Shown here one piece after another: positions 4,008 through 33,561 of a stretch of DNA of 33,561 nucleotides (position 1 is its first letter; every line of letters starts with the position of its first letter). Under the pieces are notes generated by a model, which saw nothing but the letters and a program-made list of their open reading frames with translations, was not told where the DNA came from and made no database searches. This DNA is from an uncultured Candidatus Saccharibacteria bacterium (lineage in GTDB: Bacteria > Patescibacteriota > Minisyncoccia > UBA11713 > 2-01-FULL-45-33). Both the position numbers and the translations under genes were made by a program. The DNA is taken from the NCBI GenBank assembly GCA_964422785.1, contig CAYRCJ010000004.1:1-33561 (forward strand). Direction: 5' to 3'.

Positions 4008-4667
4008 ATGAAAATAGAAACTTACAACATAAAGGGCGAAAAAGCAGGAACGGTAGAATTGCCGGGGCGGATTTTTGATGTCCAATGGAAACCGGCCTTG
4101 GTTAAACAGGTCTACGACGGCGAGCGAGCCAACTTGCGAAGACCTTGGGCCCACACAAAAACACGAGGCGAAGTAAGCGGCGGAGGCAAAAAGCCGTGGA
4201 AACAAAAAGGAACAGGCAGGGCCCGTCATGGATCTATCCGATCACCGCTTTGGGTCGGAGGAGGAGTCTCACACGGACCAAGAAATGAACGAAACTACGA
4301 AGTAAAAATAAATAAAAAAATGAAAAGAGGCGCATTTTTCTCTCTTATTTCCAGAAAGCTGAAAGAAAAAGAAATTGTTTTTGTGGATAATTTTTCTTTA
4401 ATTGCCCCCAAAACCAAAGAAGCTTTTTCTGTTTTTAAAAATCTGAGAAAAAACGGCGGTGTTTATAATCTGGGTATCAAGGGTGGAAGGGCGATTGTGG
4501 CCACGCCCAGAGAAGAAAGCGTACAACGCGCTATCCGCAATTTGCCGTTTGTATCTTATTCCGAGCCGAGAAATTTAAATACTTCGGCGCTTTTAAATAA
4601 TAAGTACGTTATTTTGGATAAATCATCCATAAAAGAATTAGAAAAAACATATGGCGGAAAAAATTAA
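4008..4667 (+). CDS. rplD: 50S ribosomal protein L4
   Basis: 219 aa, KPWKQKGTGRARHGSIRSPLWVGGGVSHGP signature. Confidence 0.95.
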   Translation: MKIETYNIKGEKAGTVELPGRIFDVQWKPALVKQVYDGERANLRRPWAHTKTRGEVSGGGKKPWKQKGTGRARHGSIRSPLWVGGGVSHGPRNERNYEVKINKKMKRGAFFSLISRKLKEKEIVFVDNFSLIAPKTKEAFSVFKNLRKNGGVYNLGIKGGRAIVATPREESVQRAIRNLPFVSYSEPRNLNTSALLNNKYVILDKSSIKELEKTYGGKN

Positions 4668-4950
4668 AAAATCTATTTCCTTGGAGCCATTGGTAATCGC
4701 TCCGCATATTTCCGAAAAAGCCTCCGCGCTTGAGGCCGATGGCTCTTATGTATTTAGGGTAACCGGCAATGCCACCAAAATTTTGCTTAAGAACGCTTTC
4801 GAAGGCCGCTTTGGCGTTAAAGTTGACTCTGTCAGGATACTCGGCGGGCACGCCAAGAAAATCCGCCGAGGCGCTACAATCGGACACAAGCCGGGCTTTA
4901 AAAAGGCCATAATTAAATTACAAAAAGGCCACACATTGCCTGAATTTTAA
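4651..4950 (+). CDS. rplW: 50S ribosomal protein L23
   Basis: 99 aa, lies between L4 and L2, 17-nt overlap with rplD, L23-like PHISEKAS...YVFRV. Confidence 0.9.
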   Translation: MAEKIKKSISLEPLVIAPHISEKASALEADGSYVFRVTGNATKILLKNAFEGRFGVKVDSVRILGGHAKKIRRGATIGHKPGFKKAIIKLQKGHTLPEF

Positions 4951-4953
4951 AAT

Positions 4954-5787
4954 ATGAAAACTTACGCACCAAGATCCCCATCGCGCAGACAATTAACCGG
5001 CATCAATTACCGGGAGCTTTTGACTCCGAATCGTGATCCTGAAAAGTCATTGATGCAGGGCAGAAAACGCCATGTGGGCAGAAATAATTTTGGCCGCATA
5101 ACGGTCCGCCACAAAGGAGGAGGCGCCAAAAGAATTATGAGGCTTGTTGATTTTAAATTGGATAAAAAAAATATTCCGGGACGGGTCGATTCGATTGAAT
5201 ACGATCCAAACAGAACCGCTTTTATCGGTCTGATAATTTACAGCGACGGAGAGAAGAGATATATGGTTTTACCCAAAGATATTCCTGCCGGCAGAGAGAT
5301 TTTAATATCCGATAACGCGCCGATGCTCCCGGGGAATCGTATGACTCTTTCAAAATTGCCCATTGGTACTCTAATTTACAATATTGCCATCTATCCCGAA
5401 GGCAAGGCCGCCCTAGTGCGCTCTGCCGGATCTTTTGCTACTGTAATCGCGCATGACGCCGGCTATGCCACTGTAAAATTGCCTTCCGGAGAAGTCAGAA
5501 AAATTTCAGAGAAAGCCTGGGCTTCCGTAGGCCAGGTTTCCAATGAAGAAAATAATTTGGTAGTAATCGGGAAGGCAGGCCGTTCGCGTTGGATGGGCAT
5601 TAGGCCTACAGTAAGAGGATCCGCCATGAATCCAGTCGACCATCCATATGGAGGAGGAGAGGGGCGCACAATGCGAGGGACAAGGCGTCCAAAGAACCTG
5701 TGGGGCAAGGGAACCCGCGGTGTAAAAACCAGGAACAAAAATAAATATTCCAAGAAATTTATTGTTAGTCGTAGAACTAAAAACTAA
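4954..5787 (+). CDS. rplB: 50S ribosomal protein L2
   Basis: 277 aa, [16 protein letters not shown] and [13 protein letters not shown] motifs. Confidence 0.97.
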
Positions 5788-20691: not shown

Positions 20692-20825
20692 TTAAATATT
20701 ATGCGAAAGTATAAATGGTCACACATGAATATCGGTCTCGATGCCCAAGTTACTTTGGAGCCGATTTTTGCTGTGGCGATTTATGCACCTCTTTTAAGTT
20801 AAAGACAATTCTAGAGATGTAGAGA

Positions 20826-29871: not shown

Positions 29872-30462
29872 ATGTTCGATTTAGTTTCACTAATAAAAAC
29901 TGCCGGATACTTGGGGATTTTCGCGATTATCTTTGCTGAATCTGGAGTTTTGGTGGGTATTTTTTTTCCGGGAGATTCTTTGCTTTTTACAGCAGGCCTT
30001 TTGGCTTCCCAGGGATTTTTAAATATTTTTATACTAATACCAGTCATTTTTTTAGCCGCGGTCTTGGGGGATAATTTTGGTTACTTTTTTGGAAAAAAGA
30101 TAGGGCCGAAAATCTTTACCAAAGAAGACTCCTTTTTCTTCAGCAAAGATCATATTGTAAGAGCCGAAAGTTTTTATGAAAAGTATGGCAAAAAGACTAT
30201 AGTCATTGTGCGCTTTATTCCTGTCATCAGAACTATTGCTCCGATATTGGCGGGAGTGGGTAGGATGAAATACTCTGTTTTTTTTATTTTTAATATCATG
30301 GGCGCTTTTCTTTGGGGTGTAGCAATCACATGGGCCGGATACTATTTGGGAAAAGTATTGCCCAATTTTGATAAACTTATTTTGCCCATCGTTTTGGGGA
30401 TTATTATTGTTTCTACAATTCCCGCGATTTTCTTTGCCAGGGGAGCCAAAAAGACCCATTGA
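29872..30462 (+). CDS. dedA: DedA family (SNARE-associated) membrane protein
   Basis: 196 aa, GYLGIFAIIFAESGVLVGIFFPGDSLLFTAG ... FIPVIRT. Confidence 0.88.
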   Translation: MFDLVSLIKTAGYLGIFAIIFAESGVLVGIFFPGDSLLFTAGLLASQGFLNIFILIPVIFLAAVLGDNFGYFFGKKIGPKIFTKEDSFFFSKDHIVRAESFYEKYGKKTIVIVRFIPVIRTIAPILAGVGRMKYSVFFIFNIMGAFLWGVAITWAGYYLGKVLPNFDKLILPIVLGIIIVSTIPAIFFARGAKKTH

Positions 30463-30486
30463 CAAATATTTTAAAAGGAGTATAAT
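30459..30486 (+). promoter_or_regulatory. near-consensus sigma70 promoter for the DGR target gene (TTGACA-N16-TATAAT)
   Basis: TTGACA at 30459-30464 overlaps the dedA stop. TATAAT at 30481-30486. Both hexamers are perfect consensus. Confidence 0.65.
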
Positions 30487-30516
30487 CAAAACAAAGTTCT
30501 TTACACAAACTTGCGC

Positions 30517-30568
30517 TTCGCCACAGCAAAAAGAGGCTTACTTATAAGCAGTTTTTTGCTGTGGCGAA
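30517..30568 (+). promoter_or_regulatory. long hairpin in the 5' leader of the DGR target gene
   Basis: TTCGCCACAGCAAAAA (30517-30532) pairs perfectly with TTTTTGCTGTGGCGAA (30553-30568), 16 bp. The 20-nt loop contains a further GCTTA/TAAGC 5-bp stem. No T-run follows. Confidence 0.6.
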
Positions 30569-30628
30569 AGCCAAAATCAAACAGCAAAAGGACAAAGTTC
30601 GAAAGAACATGTCTAGAAGGAGAAAACA

Positions 30629-31291
30629 ATGAGCGATGATTTGATGCTCGATGTTGGACAAGCAAACGAATTAAAACTTTCTTTCCGCCGGAATGGGTGG
30701 AAGACAAATGAGGAAATCAAGCGTTTGAGTGAAGGAAGTTTGCTCGCCGGCGTTTTGAGTGTCCTCAACGGCACCGCCAAGATCAAACCCATCACCGAAG
30801 ACGCCTCTCGCTGGATCACTCTCAACGAAACCACCATCGCTGTAAACCTCGCCGCCACTCCGAACCTTCCGTTCAACGAAGCAAAAATCGAAAAACATAT
30901 CGGCGAAGGTTGGGTAATTGTTGAAAAACGACCCGACGGACTCTACATCAGCGGCCGCAAAGTAATCATCCACCTCTCCAAACGCCAAAGGGGCGCAAAA
31001 TCACTGGGTGGCCATGAACTTCGCGATGAACTTACAGGAAAACCAGTCCTCAATTCCAACATCCTGGACGCTCTTTATGGGAATCCGCATTTGATTCCCG
31101 AAGACTGGAAGAAAGATGAAAATGGAAACACCATCTACATTTTCTTCTGGGGCACCCTCTACCGCGACTCGGACGTCAATCTCTACGTTCGTTGCTTATA
31201 CTTCTTCGGTGGCAGGTGGTACCGGCTCTACGGTTGGCTTGACTACGGTTGGAGTGGCAATAACCCTGCGGCTTTGCTCGCAAGTATTTAG
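30629..31291 (+). CDS. DGR variable (target) protein, 220 aa, VR at the extreme C-terminus
   Basis: AGGAG RBS 7 nt upstream. The last ~41 codons are the VR copy of the downstream TR. No signal peptide or TM segment visible. N-terminal ~175 aa unrecognised. Confidence 0.88.
   Translation: MSDDLMLDVGQANELKLSFRRNGWKTNEEIKRLSEGSLLAGVLSVLNGTAKIKPITEDASRWITLNETTIAVNLAATPNLPFNEAKIEKHIGEGWVIVEKRPDGLYISGRKVIIHLSKRQRGAKSLGGHELRDELTGKPVLNSNILDALYGNPHLIPEDWKKDENGNTIYIFFWGTLYRDSDVNLYVRCLYFFGGRWYRLYGWLDYGWSGNNPAALLASI
31160..31283 (+). repeat. DGR variable region (VR)
   Basis: 124 nt aligning without gaps to 31644-31767. There are 14 mismatches, all where TR has A. It ends 5 nt before the stop codon. Confidence 0.92.
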
Positions 31292-31297
31292 TTCTTC

Positions 31298-31340
31298 GGA
31301 CTAGGCCACTTTGACCTTTTTGAAACTTTGGCCTTAGTCC
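31298..31340 (+). other. hairpin 15 nt downstream of VR (candidate DGR target-recognition cruciform)
   Basis: GGACTAGGCC (31298-31307) pairs with GGCCTTAGTCC (31330-31340), 10 bp with a 1-nt bulge and a 22-nt loop. Confidence 0.45.
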
Positions 31341-31379
31341 TTTGATTCCGAATTTTGGGAAATATAAATTTGTTTCCAG

Positions 31380-31405
31380 CCCCGCATCTTGCGGGGCCTT
31401 TTTTT
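31380..31405 (+). terminator. rho-independent terminator of the target gene
   Basis: CCCCGCA / TCT / TGCGGGG, then CC and a T7 run. Confidence 0.8.
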
Positions 31406-31643
31406 GTGATAAAATAAAAAAGGCAGTAGGTGAATACGCGAGAGACTACGGTTTCTCGCTACCGAAACCAGTATCCATACATCGAGAGTATCTACGACTA
31501 AGGTTTTGGATAGAGTGGTGTATGCAGAAACTTCATCAAAAAATGAAAATACTTGGTGTAAGGCACTATCGCATTACGATGCGGAATTCTATACAATCCT
31601 GAGAGTATTCGAAGGATGGTGGCCCGGGAGGTGCTTTACACGC

Positions 31644-31767
31644 AAACCGCAACTCGGACGACAATCTCTACGTTCGTTACTTATACTTCAACGATGGCAG
31701 GTGGTACCGGAACTACAATTGGCTTGACAACGATTGGAATGGCAATAACCCTGCGGCTTTGCTCGCA
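31644..31767 (+). repeat. DGR template repeat (TR), non-coding
   Basis: Invariant master copy of VR. In the VR reading frame it is rich in AAC/AAT codons (N R N S D D N L Y V R Y L Y F N D G R W Y R N Y N W L D N D W N G N N P A A L L A). Confidence 0.92.
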
Positions 31768-31774
31768 ACTCTTT

Positions 31775-32080
31775 TCATTTCTCTCCCAGCTTTTTGTTGG
31801 GAGAGTTTTGTTTACCATGAATTTGTTGAAGATCTTTCGCAAGCTGCCCGCTCCATCCTCCGAGCATACGCCCGATCTCATCTATTTTTACCGAAAGTGC
31901 TATATATTTTTTGTTGTCTATTGATTTTGTTTCCCATAAAACCATGAGCAATATTTTTAGAGTATCCATTTTTCTTATTGCCAATCTCACCCAGGGATGT
32001 TTCTCTTCTCTAGATAAAAAACTTGCAATAGATACGGCTTCTATTGTTTCTACAAAAAGAACGTCAATCCGCTGACCCAA
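31775..32080 (-). CDS. avd: DGR accessory variability determinant (Avd-like four-helix-bundle protein), 5' end uncertain
   Basis: The C-terminal helix KIDEIGRMLGGWSGQL matches the EVGRILGSWI helix of Bordetella phage BPP-1 Avd. LPKIHRHSLGQRIDVLF aligns with IPRKHGVAREMF. The frame stays open upstream to 32206 and encodes a plausible helix 1 (LLQKIKSAYLVWYGYYQALPK). No ATG/GTG/TTG occurs there, and the listed start at 32080 is a TTG. Confidence 0.8.
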   Translation of the reverse strand: MGQRIDVLFVETIEAVSIASFLSREEKHPWVRLAIRKMDTLKILLMVLWETKSIDNKKYIALSVKIDEIGRMLGGWSGQLAKDLQQIHGKQNSPNKKLGEK

Positions 32081-32172
32081 AGAATGCCGATGTATTTTTG
32101 GCAGAGCCTGATAGTATCCATACCAAACAAGATATGCACTTTTTATTTTTTGAAGAAGAGGTAGAACAGTGC

Positions 32173-32182
32173 GGGGGGGGGG
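32173..32182. repeat. G10 homopolymer (C10 on the avd strand)
   Basis: Ten consecutive G in an AT-rich genome. The tract lies inside the open upstream extension of avd and 13 nt upstream of the RT ATG. Confidence 0.9.
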
Positions 32183-32195
32183 TATTATATGGAAT

Positions 32196-33188
32196 ATGGC
32201 TTTGATTCAATTCGCCCATACATATAAGGATATCATTTCCTTGGAAAATCTACTCGAGGCCTGGAAAGAATTTATAAATGGCAAAAGATCTCGCAAAGAT
32301 GTCCAAGAGTTTGAGAGAAATTTAATGAATAATATAATTTCGCTACATCTGGATCTTGCGACAAAAATCTACAAACACTCTTCGTACGAGGCTTTCAACA
32401 TCTCCGACCCGAAGCCGAGAAACATTCACAAAGCAAGGGTGAGAGATAGATTGTTGCATCACGCAATCTATAGAAAATTTTATCCTTTTTTTGAAAGAAC
32501 ATTCATTGCAGATTCCTATTCATGCCGATTAAGAAAGGGTACACATAAAGCAATCAACGTATTTCACTCGTTTATAGGCAAAGAATCAAAAAATCATACA
32601 AAGACCGTCTTTGTCCTAAAGTGCGATATAAAAAAGTTTTTTGCAAATATTGATCACGGCATACTTCTGGAAATAATCAGAAGTTGTATCCCGGACCGCG
32701 ATATTCAGCGGCTTATATCGGAAGTTGTGGAGAGCTTTCATTCAACAAGCGTCGGCGTTGGGCTTCCTTTGGGAAATCTTACTTCCCAGCTTTTGGTGAA
32801 TATTTATATGAACAGATTTGACCAATTCGTGAAGCATAAGCTCAAAGCAAAATACTATATTCGCTATGCGGATGACTTTGTTATATTGTCGCAAGATAAA
32901 AAATGGCTTGAAGATATATTGCTTCGCATAAAAGATTTTTTATTGACTAATCTAAAACTAGAGCTTCATCCCGATAAAGTTTCCATTAAAACAGCGGCGT
33001 CCGGTATTGATTTTTTGGGGTGGGTTCATTTTTCCGATCACCGAGTTTTACGAACAACAACCAAAAAGAGAATGTTTAAGCGACTCGAAACATATTCTAA
33101 AAAGCCGGAGATGGTCAATTCATATCGCGGATTATTACAGCATGGCAATGCCTATAAAATTCTACAATTGATTGATGAAACAGGTTAA
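32196..33188 (+). CDS. DGR reverse transcriptase
   Basis: 330 aa from the ATG at 32196 (the track GTG at 32169 adds 9 aa across the G-tract). RT motifs: PKPRNIHKARVRDRLLHHAI, SYSCRLRKGTHKA, LKCDIKKFFANIDH, GLPLGNLTSQLLVNIYMNRFD (DGR-type [I/L]GxxxSQ), YIRYADDFVIL (YxDD), LELHPDKVSI, GIDFLGW. Confidence 0.95.
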   Translation: MALIQFAHTYKDIISLENLLEAWKEFINGKRSRKDVQEFERNLMNNIISLHLDLATKIYKHSSYEAFNISDPKPRNIHKARVRDRLLHHAIYRKFYPFFERTFIADSYSCRLRKGTHKAINVFHSFIGKESKNHTKTVFVLKCDIKKFFANIDHGILLEIIRSCIPDRDIQRLISEVVESFHSTSVGVGLPLGNLTSQLLVNIYMNRFDQFVKHKLKAKYYIRYADDFVILSQDKKWLEDILLRIKDFLLTNLKLELHPDKVSIKTAASGIDFLGWVHFSDHRVLRTTTKKRMFKRLETYSKKPEMVNSYRGLLQHGNAYKILQLIDETG

Positions 33189-33203: not shown

Positions 33204-33561
33204 ATGGAATCAAAAGCTGAAATGCTTAATGCGCTAAAAAAAGAAATTGAGGCGGATAAATCACTTCCGCTGTATGGCGCAGCGAATTTGGTTTTTGGAG
33301 AGGGCGATCCGGACGCTAAGGTTATGTTTATCGGCGAAGCTCCCGGATTTTATGAAGACCGAGAGATGAGGCCGTTTGTGGGCCGGGCCGGGCAACTTTT
33401 AAATAAAATGCTTTTGGGTATCGGGTGGCCGAGAGAAAGTGTTTACATAACTAATATTGTAAAAAGACGGCCGCCGGAAAATCGCGATCCGTTACCGGAT
33501 GAAATTGAATCATACAAACCTTATCTTAAAAAACAAATTGAAATTATAAATCCAAAAATCA
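33204..33561 (+). CDS. udg: family 4 uracil-DNA glycosylase, partial (runs off window end)
   Basis: Absent from the ORF track. Hand translation from the ATG at 33204: MESKAEMLNALKKEIEADKSLPLYGAANLVFGEGDPDAKVMFIGEAPGFYEDREMRPFVGRAGQLLNKML...NIVKRRPPENRDP. GEAPG...PFVGRAG is the family-4 UDG signature. Confidence 0.88.
   Translation, partial: MESKAEMLNALKKEIEADKSLPLYGAANLVFGEGDPDAKVMFIGEAPGFYEDREMRPFVGRAGQLLNKMLLGIGWPRESVYITNIVKRRPPENRDPLPDEIESYKPYLKKQIEIINPKI

Follow-up and report, generated by a model that had tools for sequence, protein, structure and literature searches.

The window analyzed here, a stretch of 33,561 nt that corresponds to the forward strand of contig CAYRCJ010000004.1 (assembly GCA_964422785.1) from an uncultured Candidatus Saccharibacteria bacterium, carries genes and repeats which together have the layout of a diversity-generating retroelement (DGR). 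Read along the plus strand, the locus begins with the gene for a variable protein of 220 aa, the target of the element (30629–31291), whose family is widespread in Patescibacteria and whose codons 178–219 constitute the variable region (VR, 31160–31283, plus strand). The template repeat (TR, 31645–31768, plus strand) of 124 nt follows, and behind it lie avd, the gene for the accessory variability determinant, on the minus strand (31775–32219) and, on the plus strand again, the gene for a reverse transcriptase (RT) of 330 aa (32196–33188). VR and TR are the sole long repeat within the window, and the 22-mer at the 3′ end of the pair occurs just twice in it, both times in the pair.

The first-pass annotation of this DNA had described 31160–31283 as VR and 31644–31767 as TR. 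The VR interval stood, but the TR interval had slipped by one nucleotide: compared ungapped, the two intervals differ at 93 positions, whereas with the correct TR, 31645–31768 (offset 485), there are 110 identities and 14 mismatches without any indel. At the other offsets from 470 to 499 the number of identities never exceeds 38. Once the register is set right, the rest of the description is borne out by the computer alignment that it had called for. All 14 differences fall on an adenine of the TR, with G in the VR seven times, T six times and C once. We count 34 A among the 124 nt of the TR, of which 41% are changed (about 40 percent had been claimed), and 0 of the 90 non-A positions differ, so that no mismatch is seen at a C, G or T of the template. 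For 14 positions drawn at random, the hypergeometric probability of hitting nothing but A is 1.3e-9. The first mismatch (31160/31645) sits at the extreme edge of the homology, so 13 or 14 mismatches are counted according to the start chosen for the repeat.

Position 31160 is in phase 0 of the open reading frame (ORF) 30629–31291, and with respect to this frame six of the changes hit codon position 1 and eight codon position 2; position 3 is never hit. The 11 codons concerned are exactly those that the annotation had listed, i.e., AAC to TAC, AAC to GAC, GAC to GTC, TAC to TGC, AAC to TTC, GAT to GGT, AAC to CTC, AAT to GGT, AAC to TAC, GAT to GGT and AAT to AGT. From the codon table it can be read that no A-containing codon of the TR mutates to a stop codon, which agrees with the stop-proof AAY design that had been proposed. 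The final 29 nt of the VR (31255–31283) are identical to 31740–31768 despite containing six A. The label of a segment like the initiation of mutagenic homing (IMH) sequence is plausible for this stretch, because it is invariant and relatively GC-rich and because the homology breaks off at 31284, 5 nt ahead of the stop codon of the target gene.

The RT gene starts 428 nt 3′ of the TR on the same strand, the likely start being the ATG at 32196. Its product matches RVT_1 and contains the motifs LGNLTSQ and YADD. The best match in the PDB is 8ub7_A (E 3e-43 over residues 12–307), followed at a distance by group II intron and retron-type RTs at about 1e-17. Judging from its sequence we take 8ub7_A to be the RT of the Bordetella phage DGR (bRT), because I181, G182 and Q187 are present in it exactly as the preprint of Handa et al. 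names these residues for bRT. The LGNLTSQ motif of the window RT aligns to I181-G182...S186-Q187 of bRT and YADD to YMDD. The RT was assigned to the DGR clade by its best PDB relative and its motifs. Relatives with 60–72% identity were found at more than 500 loci in species-representative genomes and metagenome contigs, and those in species-representative genomes nearly all stem from metagenome-assembled genomes (MAGs) titled Patescibacteria or candidate phyla radiation (CPR).

The avd gene consists of two parts in different frames. The listed ORF 31775–32080 matches positions 37–104 of 107 of Pfam bAvd as sequenced (E 2.3e-6), and the first Avd helix, which this ORF lacks, lies further upstream in that frame, the Avd domain spanning 31775–32172 without a start codon of its own. 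An ATG is present at 32219 in another frame, and the two frames meet at a run of ten C in the avd sense, that is, a G10 homopolymer of the plus strand (32173–32182), which occupies codons 14–17 of avd and is located 13 nt 5′ of the ATG of RT. At its length of 10 the tract breaks the avd frame, which 9 or 12 bases would restore. The product with 9 C would be a single protein of 148 aa which matches NCBIfam DivGenRetAVD over positions 1–102 of 104 (E 1.9e-16, below the 80-bit cutoff) and Pfam bAvd with 42.8 bits, which exceeds the required 40 (gathering score). The match to DivGenRetAVD starts 3–4 residues past the tract. Comparison of Avd with the PDB by phmmer gave nothing. The starts of RT and avd overlap in antisense by 24 nt (32196–32219) in the same codon register, and the overlap comprises the first eight codons of each gene (peptides MALIQFAH and MGELNQSH); in both genes the eighth codon is a conserved CAT (His8), which on the opposite strand reads as the start codon ATG of the partner.

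For comparison we fetched related loci, which are labeled L001 and so on where a label is needed. The order target with VR, TR, antisense avd and RT recurs at about 160 loci in Patescibacteria MAGs. Among the 152 related loci examined the order of target, TR, reversed avd and RT is universal, and every scorable one has a target with a C-terminal VR, a spacer of 250–450 nt, a TR, avd on the opposite strand and the RT. Across 62 loci, 1021 of 1076 VR/TR mismatches (about 95%) fall on adenines of the TR, and at 97 loci at least 80% of the mismatches of the pair are at A. When the target family is grouped into clusters of 90% identity, the variable columns lie almost exclusively in the C-terminal VR; in clusters 1, 5 and 8 there are 0 variable columns among the first 156–170 and 13–28 among the last 60. 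This confinement of the variation to the VR in sister lineages is the signature that active DGRs leave in populations of the target family.

The homopolymer within avd is not peculiar to the window. A run of C6–C14 is present at the same site of avd in 126 of the 152 related loci and missing in 26. Beyond the window the site concerns L004–L169 and L205–L207, and the frame was counted on 115 distinct sequences. In 32 of these (28%) the ATG frame is the Avd frame and avd is ON, 45 would need one base fewer, 33 one base more, and in five the frame is ambiguous. The share of in-frame sequences is indistinguishable from one third (p = 0.24). At about 90% of the loci the tract is entered by one, and only one, open frame that starts with ATG. 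Runs of at least seven G or C are rare otherwise, since 595 kb of fetched loci contain 78 of them, nearly all at the avd site.

The loci without a homopolymer are informative as well. At the same site of avd five of them have (CA)7–12, one has (GA)12 and one (CT)10, and one locus each has (AGCC)7, (AACC)7, (ACGA)9, (CAGC)5, (GCCA)10 and (GTCA)13; a few loci have no repeat and a plain in-frame ATG. The repeat units are thus of 1, 2 or 4 nt and never of 3, and some of the loci with di- or tetranucleotides are out of frame, too. Relatives which are free of such simple sequence repeats (SSRs) have the same N-terminal extension of avd, in frame. Eight sets of assemblies from the same strain could be compared, and in three of them the tract differs in length by one base. 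One set has G8 in four assemblies and G9 in a fifth that is 99.4% identical, another has G9 and G10, and in the third G10 stands against G9 with an identical target protein, the G9 allele encoding a full Avd of 133 aa. A short G6 tract was identical in six assemblies.

Two other readings of the tract were considered. That translation of avd begins at a start codon just 3′ of the tract was rejected as a general explanation: such a codon occurs in only 62 of the 115 sequences, in most cases as a TTG for Leu, and the window lacks one. A role that depends on G, as a Shine–Dalgarno sequence of RT or as a G-quadruplex, is unlikely to be the main one given the CA, GA, CT and tetranucleotide repeats which occupy the site elsewhere. 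The tract could conceivably affect the 5′ untranslated region (UTR) of RT in addition.

Upstream of the TR we found a second feature which is shared by the relatives. The sequence TGaTAAAAT at 31407–31415 (plus strand) resembles an extended −10 element and recurs as TGnTAnAAT in related loci; it is the putative promoter of the TR RNA. After this element there follow about 215 nt of conserved sequence directly 5′ of the TR, which form a structured leader of seven helices (31421–31641, plus strand). RNAalifold on 61 loci gave 41 pairs, and compensatory double changes are seen in 36 of these 41. Of the alignment cells, 96.1% are paired, compared with 40–46% when the partners are slid by 1–3 columns, and the covariation score is 0.725 versus about 0.13 in the slid controls; 0 of 500 shuffles attain the observed values. 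All 41 pairs can be formed by the window sequence. A long-range helix of the leader (31556–31567 with 31630–31641) stops 4 nt short of the first base of the TR, and by analogy it may be the counterpart of the "stop" duplex of BPP-1. For BPP-1 the preprint of Handa et al. describes an essential RNA with 20 nt upstream and a spacer of 140 nt downstream of the TR. No family of Rfam attains its gathering score at any place in the window, and the hits at E up to 1 are at chance level only; the one inside the leader, to RT-7 RNA at 31482–31537, scores 18.4 bits (E 0.13) where the gathering threshold is 116.8 and is probably due to chance.

On the other side of the TR, 12 nt from its 3′ end, a stem–loop of 10 bp with a U-run (31781–31813, plus strand) overlaps the 3′ end of avd. 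It is present in essentially all related loci with compensatory changes in the stem. Handa et al. report that 207 of 278 DGRs, CPR members included, have putative "Avd-binding stem–loops" closely behind the TR. From its sequence and position the hairpin in the window may be the terminator of the TR RNA, or the counterpart of these stem–loops, or both. If it terminates, RT needs a promoter of its own, and none was identified. The covarying leader would provide a defined RNA for reconstituting a DGR other than that of Bordetella.

Taken together, we are highly confident that the two intervals are the VR and TR of a chromosomal DGR of the Patescibacteria (CPR) clade. The features that define a DGR are present: the adenine-specific asymmetry, an RT of the DGR type, a recoded VR within a coding sequence, and Avd, albeit out of frame. 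The reading of the pair as VR and TR in the first-pass annotation is supported by the RT, the Avd homolog and the position of the VR at the C-terminus of an ORF, and by the recurrence of the pattern in about 100 related loci. A direct repeat of 124 nt could in principle also arise by ordinary partial gene duplication or gene conversion followed by point mutation without any reverse transcription. The existence of the repeat is all that speaks for such an origin; the confinement of all 14 changes, which bring in three different bases, to adenines of one copy, with none at the 90 other positions (P = 1.3e-9), the adjacent RT and Avd genes and the same asymmetry in the relatives speak against it, and with its probability close to nil it can already be regarded as effectively refuted. 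Some observations nevertheless weigh against the DGR interpretation. As sequenced, avd is without an intact reading frame. The promoter, the transcript ends and the function of the IMH-like segment are putative throughout. Exact-sequence look-ups of the window target and RT returned no sibling contig of this locus, and Foldseek, profile and Pfam comparisons of the target did not match the C-type lectin (CLec) or Ig fold which is typical of DGR targets.

The broken frame of avd can be understood in three ways. The one that we favor, by a modest measure and from comparison of sequences, is that avd is a contingency gene here and in most of the Patescibacteria relatives, and that its repeat, placed between the start codon and the first helix of Avd, is hypermutable and by slipped-strand changes would switch Avd, and with it the hypermutation of the VR, on and off. 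The simplest reading of the G10 tract is then that avd in the window is in the OFF state, with G9 or G12 as the ON states, and that the DGR in the sequenced genotype is probably switched off at present, the switch being probably reversible. We infer this switch from comparative data only. Alternatively, the element may be a fossil, in which the differences between VR and TR go back to past homing and the frameshift in avd is a step of decay instead of a switch. The out-of-frame G10 fits this idea, and initiation at TTG 32080, the nearest canonical start codon that is in frame with the Avd domain, would cost about 30 residues of it. Yet RT has an uninterrupted ORF that retains the catalytic motifs, all the covarying pairs of the leader form in the window, VR and TR differ at adenines of the TR only, and a tract of variable length and frame at one and the same site in 126 of 152 loci is unlike independent decay. 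We therefore consider a fossil element unlikely.

The third possibility is an artefact, that is, that short-read metagenome assemblies give a wrong homopolymer length and that the tract in reality always keeps avd in frame. G/C homopolymers of 9–10 nt are indeed error-prone in sequencing, and the differences between assemblies of the same strain are of single bases. However, the out-of-frame G8 was obtained in four independent assemblies and the same G6 in six, and with only 28% of the 115 sequences in frame most of the consensus calls would have to be wrong. Moreover, the di- and tetranucleotide repeats at the site, some of which are out of frame, are not prone to homopolymer errors, and the same contigs have further G7–G8 runs within coding genes, all of which keep the frame. 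We regard miscalling as unlikely to be the main cause of the disrupted frame. Returning to avd as a contingency gene, transcriptional or ribosomal slippage on the tract may coexist with the switching at the DNA level and perhaps gives a low constitutive amount of Avd.

To our knowledge, how cells restrain or time the mutagenesis by DGRs is largely unknown. If avd is switched as proposed, a conserved frame-shifting repeat would be a simple and testable answer for the whole clade, namely stochastic switching of a targeted mutator. Turning the mutator OFF after a useful variant of the VR has arisen would lock this variant in, and such locking would explain why most consensus genomes are OFF. Paul et al. 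2017 reportedly deals with DGRs of CPR/Patescibacteria. In the DGR literature examined, a scope that did not extend to Paul et al. 2017, neither the tract nor the 5′ leader is mentioned, and a search for literature on DGRs or Avd together with phase variation, homopolymer, SSR or frameshift gave nothing relevant.

The following course of events is proposed for the element, its transcript ends, the sites of priming and termination, the mechanism of homing and its current activity all being putative. From the promoter just past the terminator of the target gene a small RNA would be transcribed which consists of the structured leader of 215 nt, the TR of 124 nt and the short 3′ stem–loop with its U-run, its predicted ends being at about 31422 and about 31810. 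The RT together with Avd would copy the TR into cDNA and misincorporate nucleotides opposite the adenines of the template. This cDNA would then replace the VR, the last ~42 codons of the target of 220 aa, homing being directed by the invariant 3′ segment and probably aided by the hairpin after the VR. Up to 22 residues could be recoded in this way without a stop codon becoming possible, because the adenines of the TR are at codon positions 1 and 2 (mostly AAY, GAY and TAY codons).

The target gene is preceded by a site resembling a sigma-70-type promoter (TTGACA-16-TATAAT, 12/12 consensus positions, 30459–30486, plus strand). Between this site and the start codon an inverted repeat forms a long hairpin in the 5′ UTR (30511–30574, plus strand; the fold of 30487–30628 has −46.5 kcal/mol) which is not followed by a U-run. 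This hairpin of ~64 nt is very stable, a partly similar sequence is found at 20750–20779, and an inverted repeat is likewise present ahead of the closest target homologs (L001 and L002). Downstream, 15 nt 3′ of the VR, there is an imperfect hairpin (31298–31340, plus strand), with similar hairpins after the VR in most related loci, and the gene ends in an intrinsic terminator with a GC stem of 8 bp and a T-run (31379–31405, plus strand).

For the target protein Pfam, NCBIfam and PADLOC gave no family, and neither a signal peptide nor a membrane segment is obvious in it. Its profile found nothing among the PDB sequences at E up to 1. The 328 relatives which were detected are all unannotated; those with a name come from Nomura-, Giovannoni- and Yanofskybacteria and from Paceibacterota. 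An AlphaFold2 model built with an alignment of 60 sequences is confident (predicted local distance difference test, pLDDT, 88.5; predicted template-modelling score, pTM, 0.75). In this model three N-terminal helices are followed by a beta-rich middle part, three further helices and four beta-strands that bear the VR, and along these strands the variable residues (189/193 and 200/202, for instance) take alternate positions, as they would if displayed on one face of a sheet. A Foldseek search with the full model yielded no match; the best E value was 0.37 for the PDB and 0.085 for BFVD, and the template-modelling (TM) scores were about 0.1–0.2. The C-terminal 105 residues modelled alone gave a poor model (pLDDT 65), and since they fold poorly alone, the modelling suggests that this part packs against the rest of the protein. 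Conceivably the target has a very divergent CLec-like alpha-alpha-beta4 topology. With more than 300 relatives, no annotation and no known fold, the family is a candidate for a new scaffold that tolerates hypervariation.

Several members of the target family lie at loci without an adjacent RT or TR (L001–L003, L170–L178 and L189–L190), for instance between secY and adk (L003) or beside glycosyltransferases (L170). They may be diversified in trans or may be fixed paralogs. Many other contigs of the family (L191–L204 and L208–L210) are only 1.3–2 kb long and end soon after the gene, as is expected if the VR/TR repeats and the heterogeneity of the VR fragment assemblies.

In comparison with the prototype DGR of BPP-1 (mtd-avd-TR-brt), the locus shares the adenine-specific transfer from TR to VR, the C-terminal VR with its AAY design, the invariant GC-rich IMH-like 3′ segment, a hairpin after the VR, homologous RT and Avd proteins and a structured RNA at the template. 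It differs in that avd lies on the opposite strand between TR and RT and overlaps the RT start by 24 nt in antisense, and in that the 3′ spacer RNA of 140 nt is missing, the window having the covarying 5′ leader of 215 nt and the 10-bp stem–loop with U-run on the 3′ side instead. Furthermore, the target has no detectable C-type lectin fold, avd carries a frame-shifting homopolymer, and the element is located in the chromosome beside housekeeping genes and not in a phage.

Nothing sets the locus apart from the DGRs already known from CPR bacteria. It is an ordinary member of their clade, which is already known to be abundant in these ultra-small bacteria, and the finding as such is confirmatory. 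Three features are of note beyond the locus, and each is a property of the clade: avd with its repeat tract, the 5′ leader with its covariation, and a target whose fold could not be assigned. Roux et al. 2021 (PMC8144416) describe a DGR clade 2 that is restricted to Patescibacteria, and Wu et al. 2018 (PMC5758913), who define a CPR set, give a CPR-specific architecture B3 for 90% of the CPR DGRs and place most of their targets in "unknown" VR classes. The order of components in the window may correspond to B3. With the CPR DGRs the window shares its type of RT, which has 60–72% identity to that of more than 500 loci, and the order and spacing of the components, and its target, too, is among the CPR targets without known domains which make up the "unknown VR" classes of Wu et al.

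With respect to its tract, avd resembles the SSR contingency genes of Neisseria, Haemophilus, Campylobacter and Mycobacterium, which likewise have a G/C homopolymer of 8–12 nt in the 5′ part of the coding sequence, repeat units of 1, 2 or 4 and never 3 nt, ON and OFF alleles among relatives and differences of one unit between near-identical strains. Unlike these genes, avd codes for an accessory factor of a mutagenic retroelement and not for a surface antigen or a restriction-modification system. The hosts are uncultured CPR bacteria, and the switching is inferred here from assembled sequences.

The rest of the window is ordinary chromosome with genes for EF-Tu, SecY, adenylate kinase, methionine aminopeptidase, PGK, ComEC, a beta-CASP RNase and a DedA/VTT protein. 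Directly behind the retroelement, 18 nt past the RT stop codon, an ORF (33206–33561) by eye resembles a family-4 uracil-DNA glycosylase. The gene after RT varies among the related loci (it is a NUDIX gene in L004), so that the linkage to the glycosylase-like ORF is probably fortuitous.

Direct repeats flanking the cassette, as they occur around that of L004, were not found in the window. L004 belongs to a Giovannonibacteria-like lineage in which the whole cassette of 2.75 kb is situated directly after glmS and is flanked by direct repeats of ~40 nt derived from the 3′ end of glmS (L004 4766–4805 and 7511–7550). In L007 the segments 1610–2629 and 4359–5378 belong to this observation as well. 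Owing to the flanking repeat, the RT ORF of this lineage ends in ...ARNLAKSVTVE*, which is the C-terminus of GlmS, and one contig has the tandem arrangement target-TR-avd-RT-target. These observations suggest that the cassette has been inserted or duplicated as a unit in the glmS-linked lineage.

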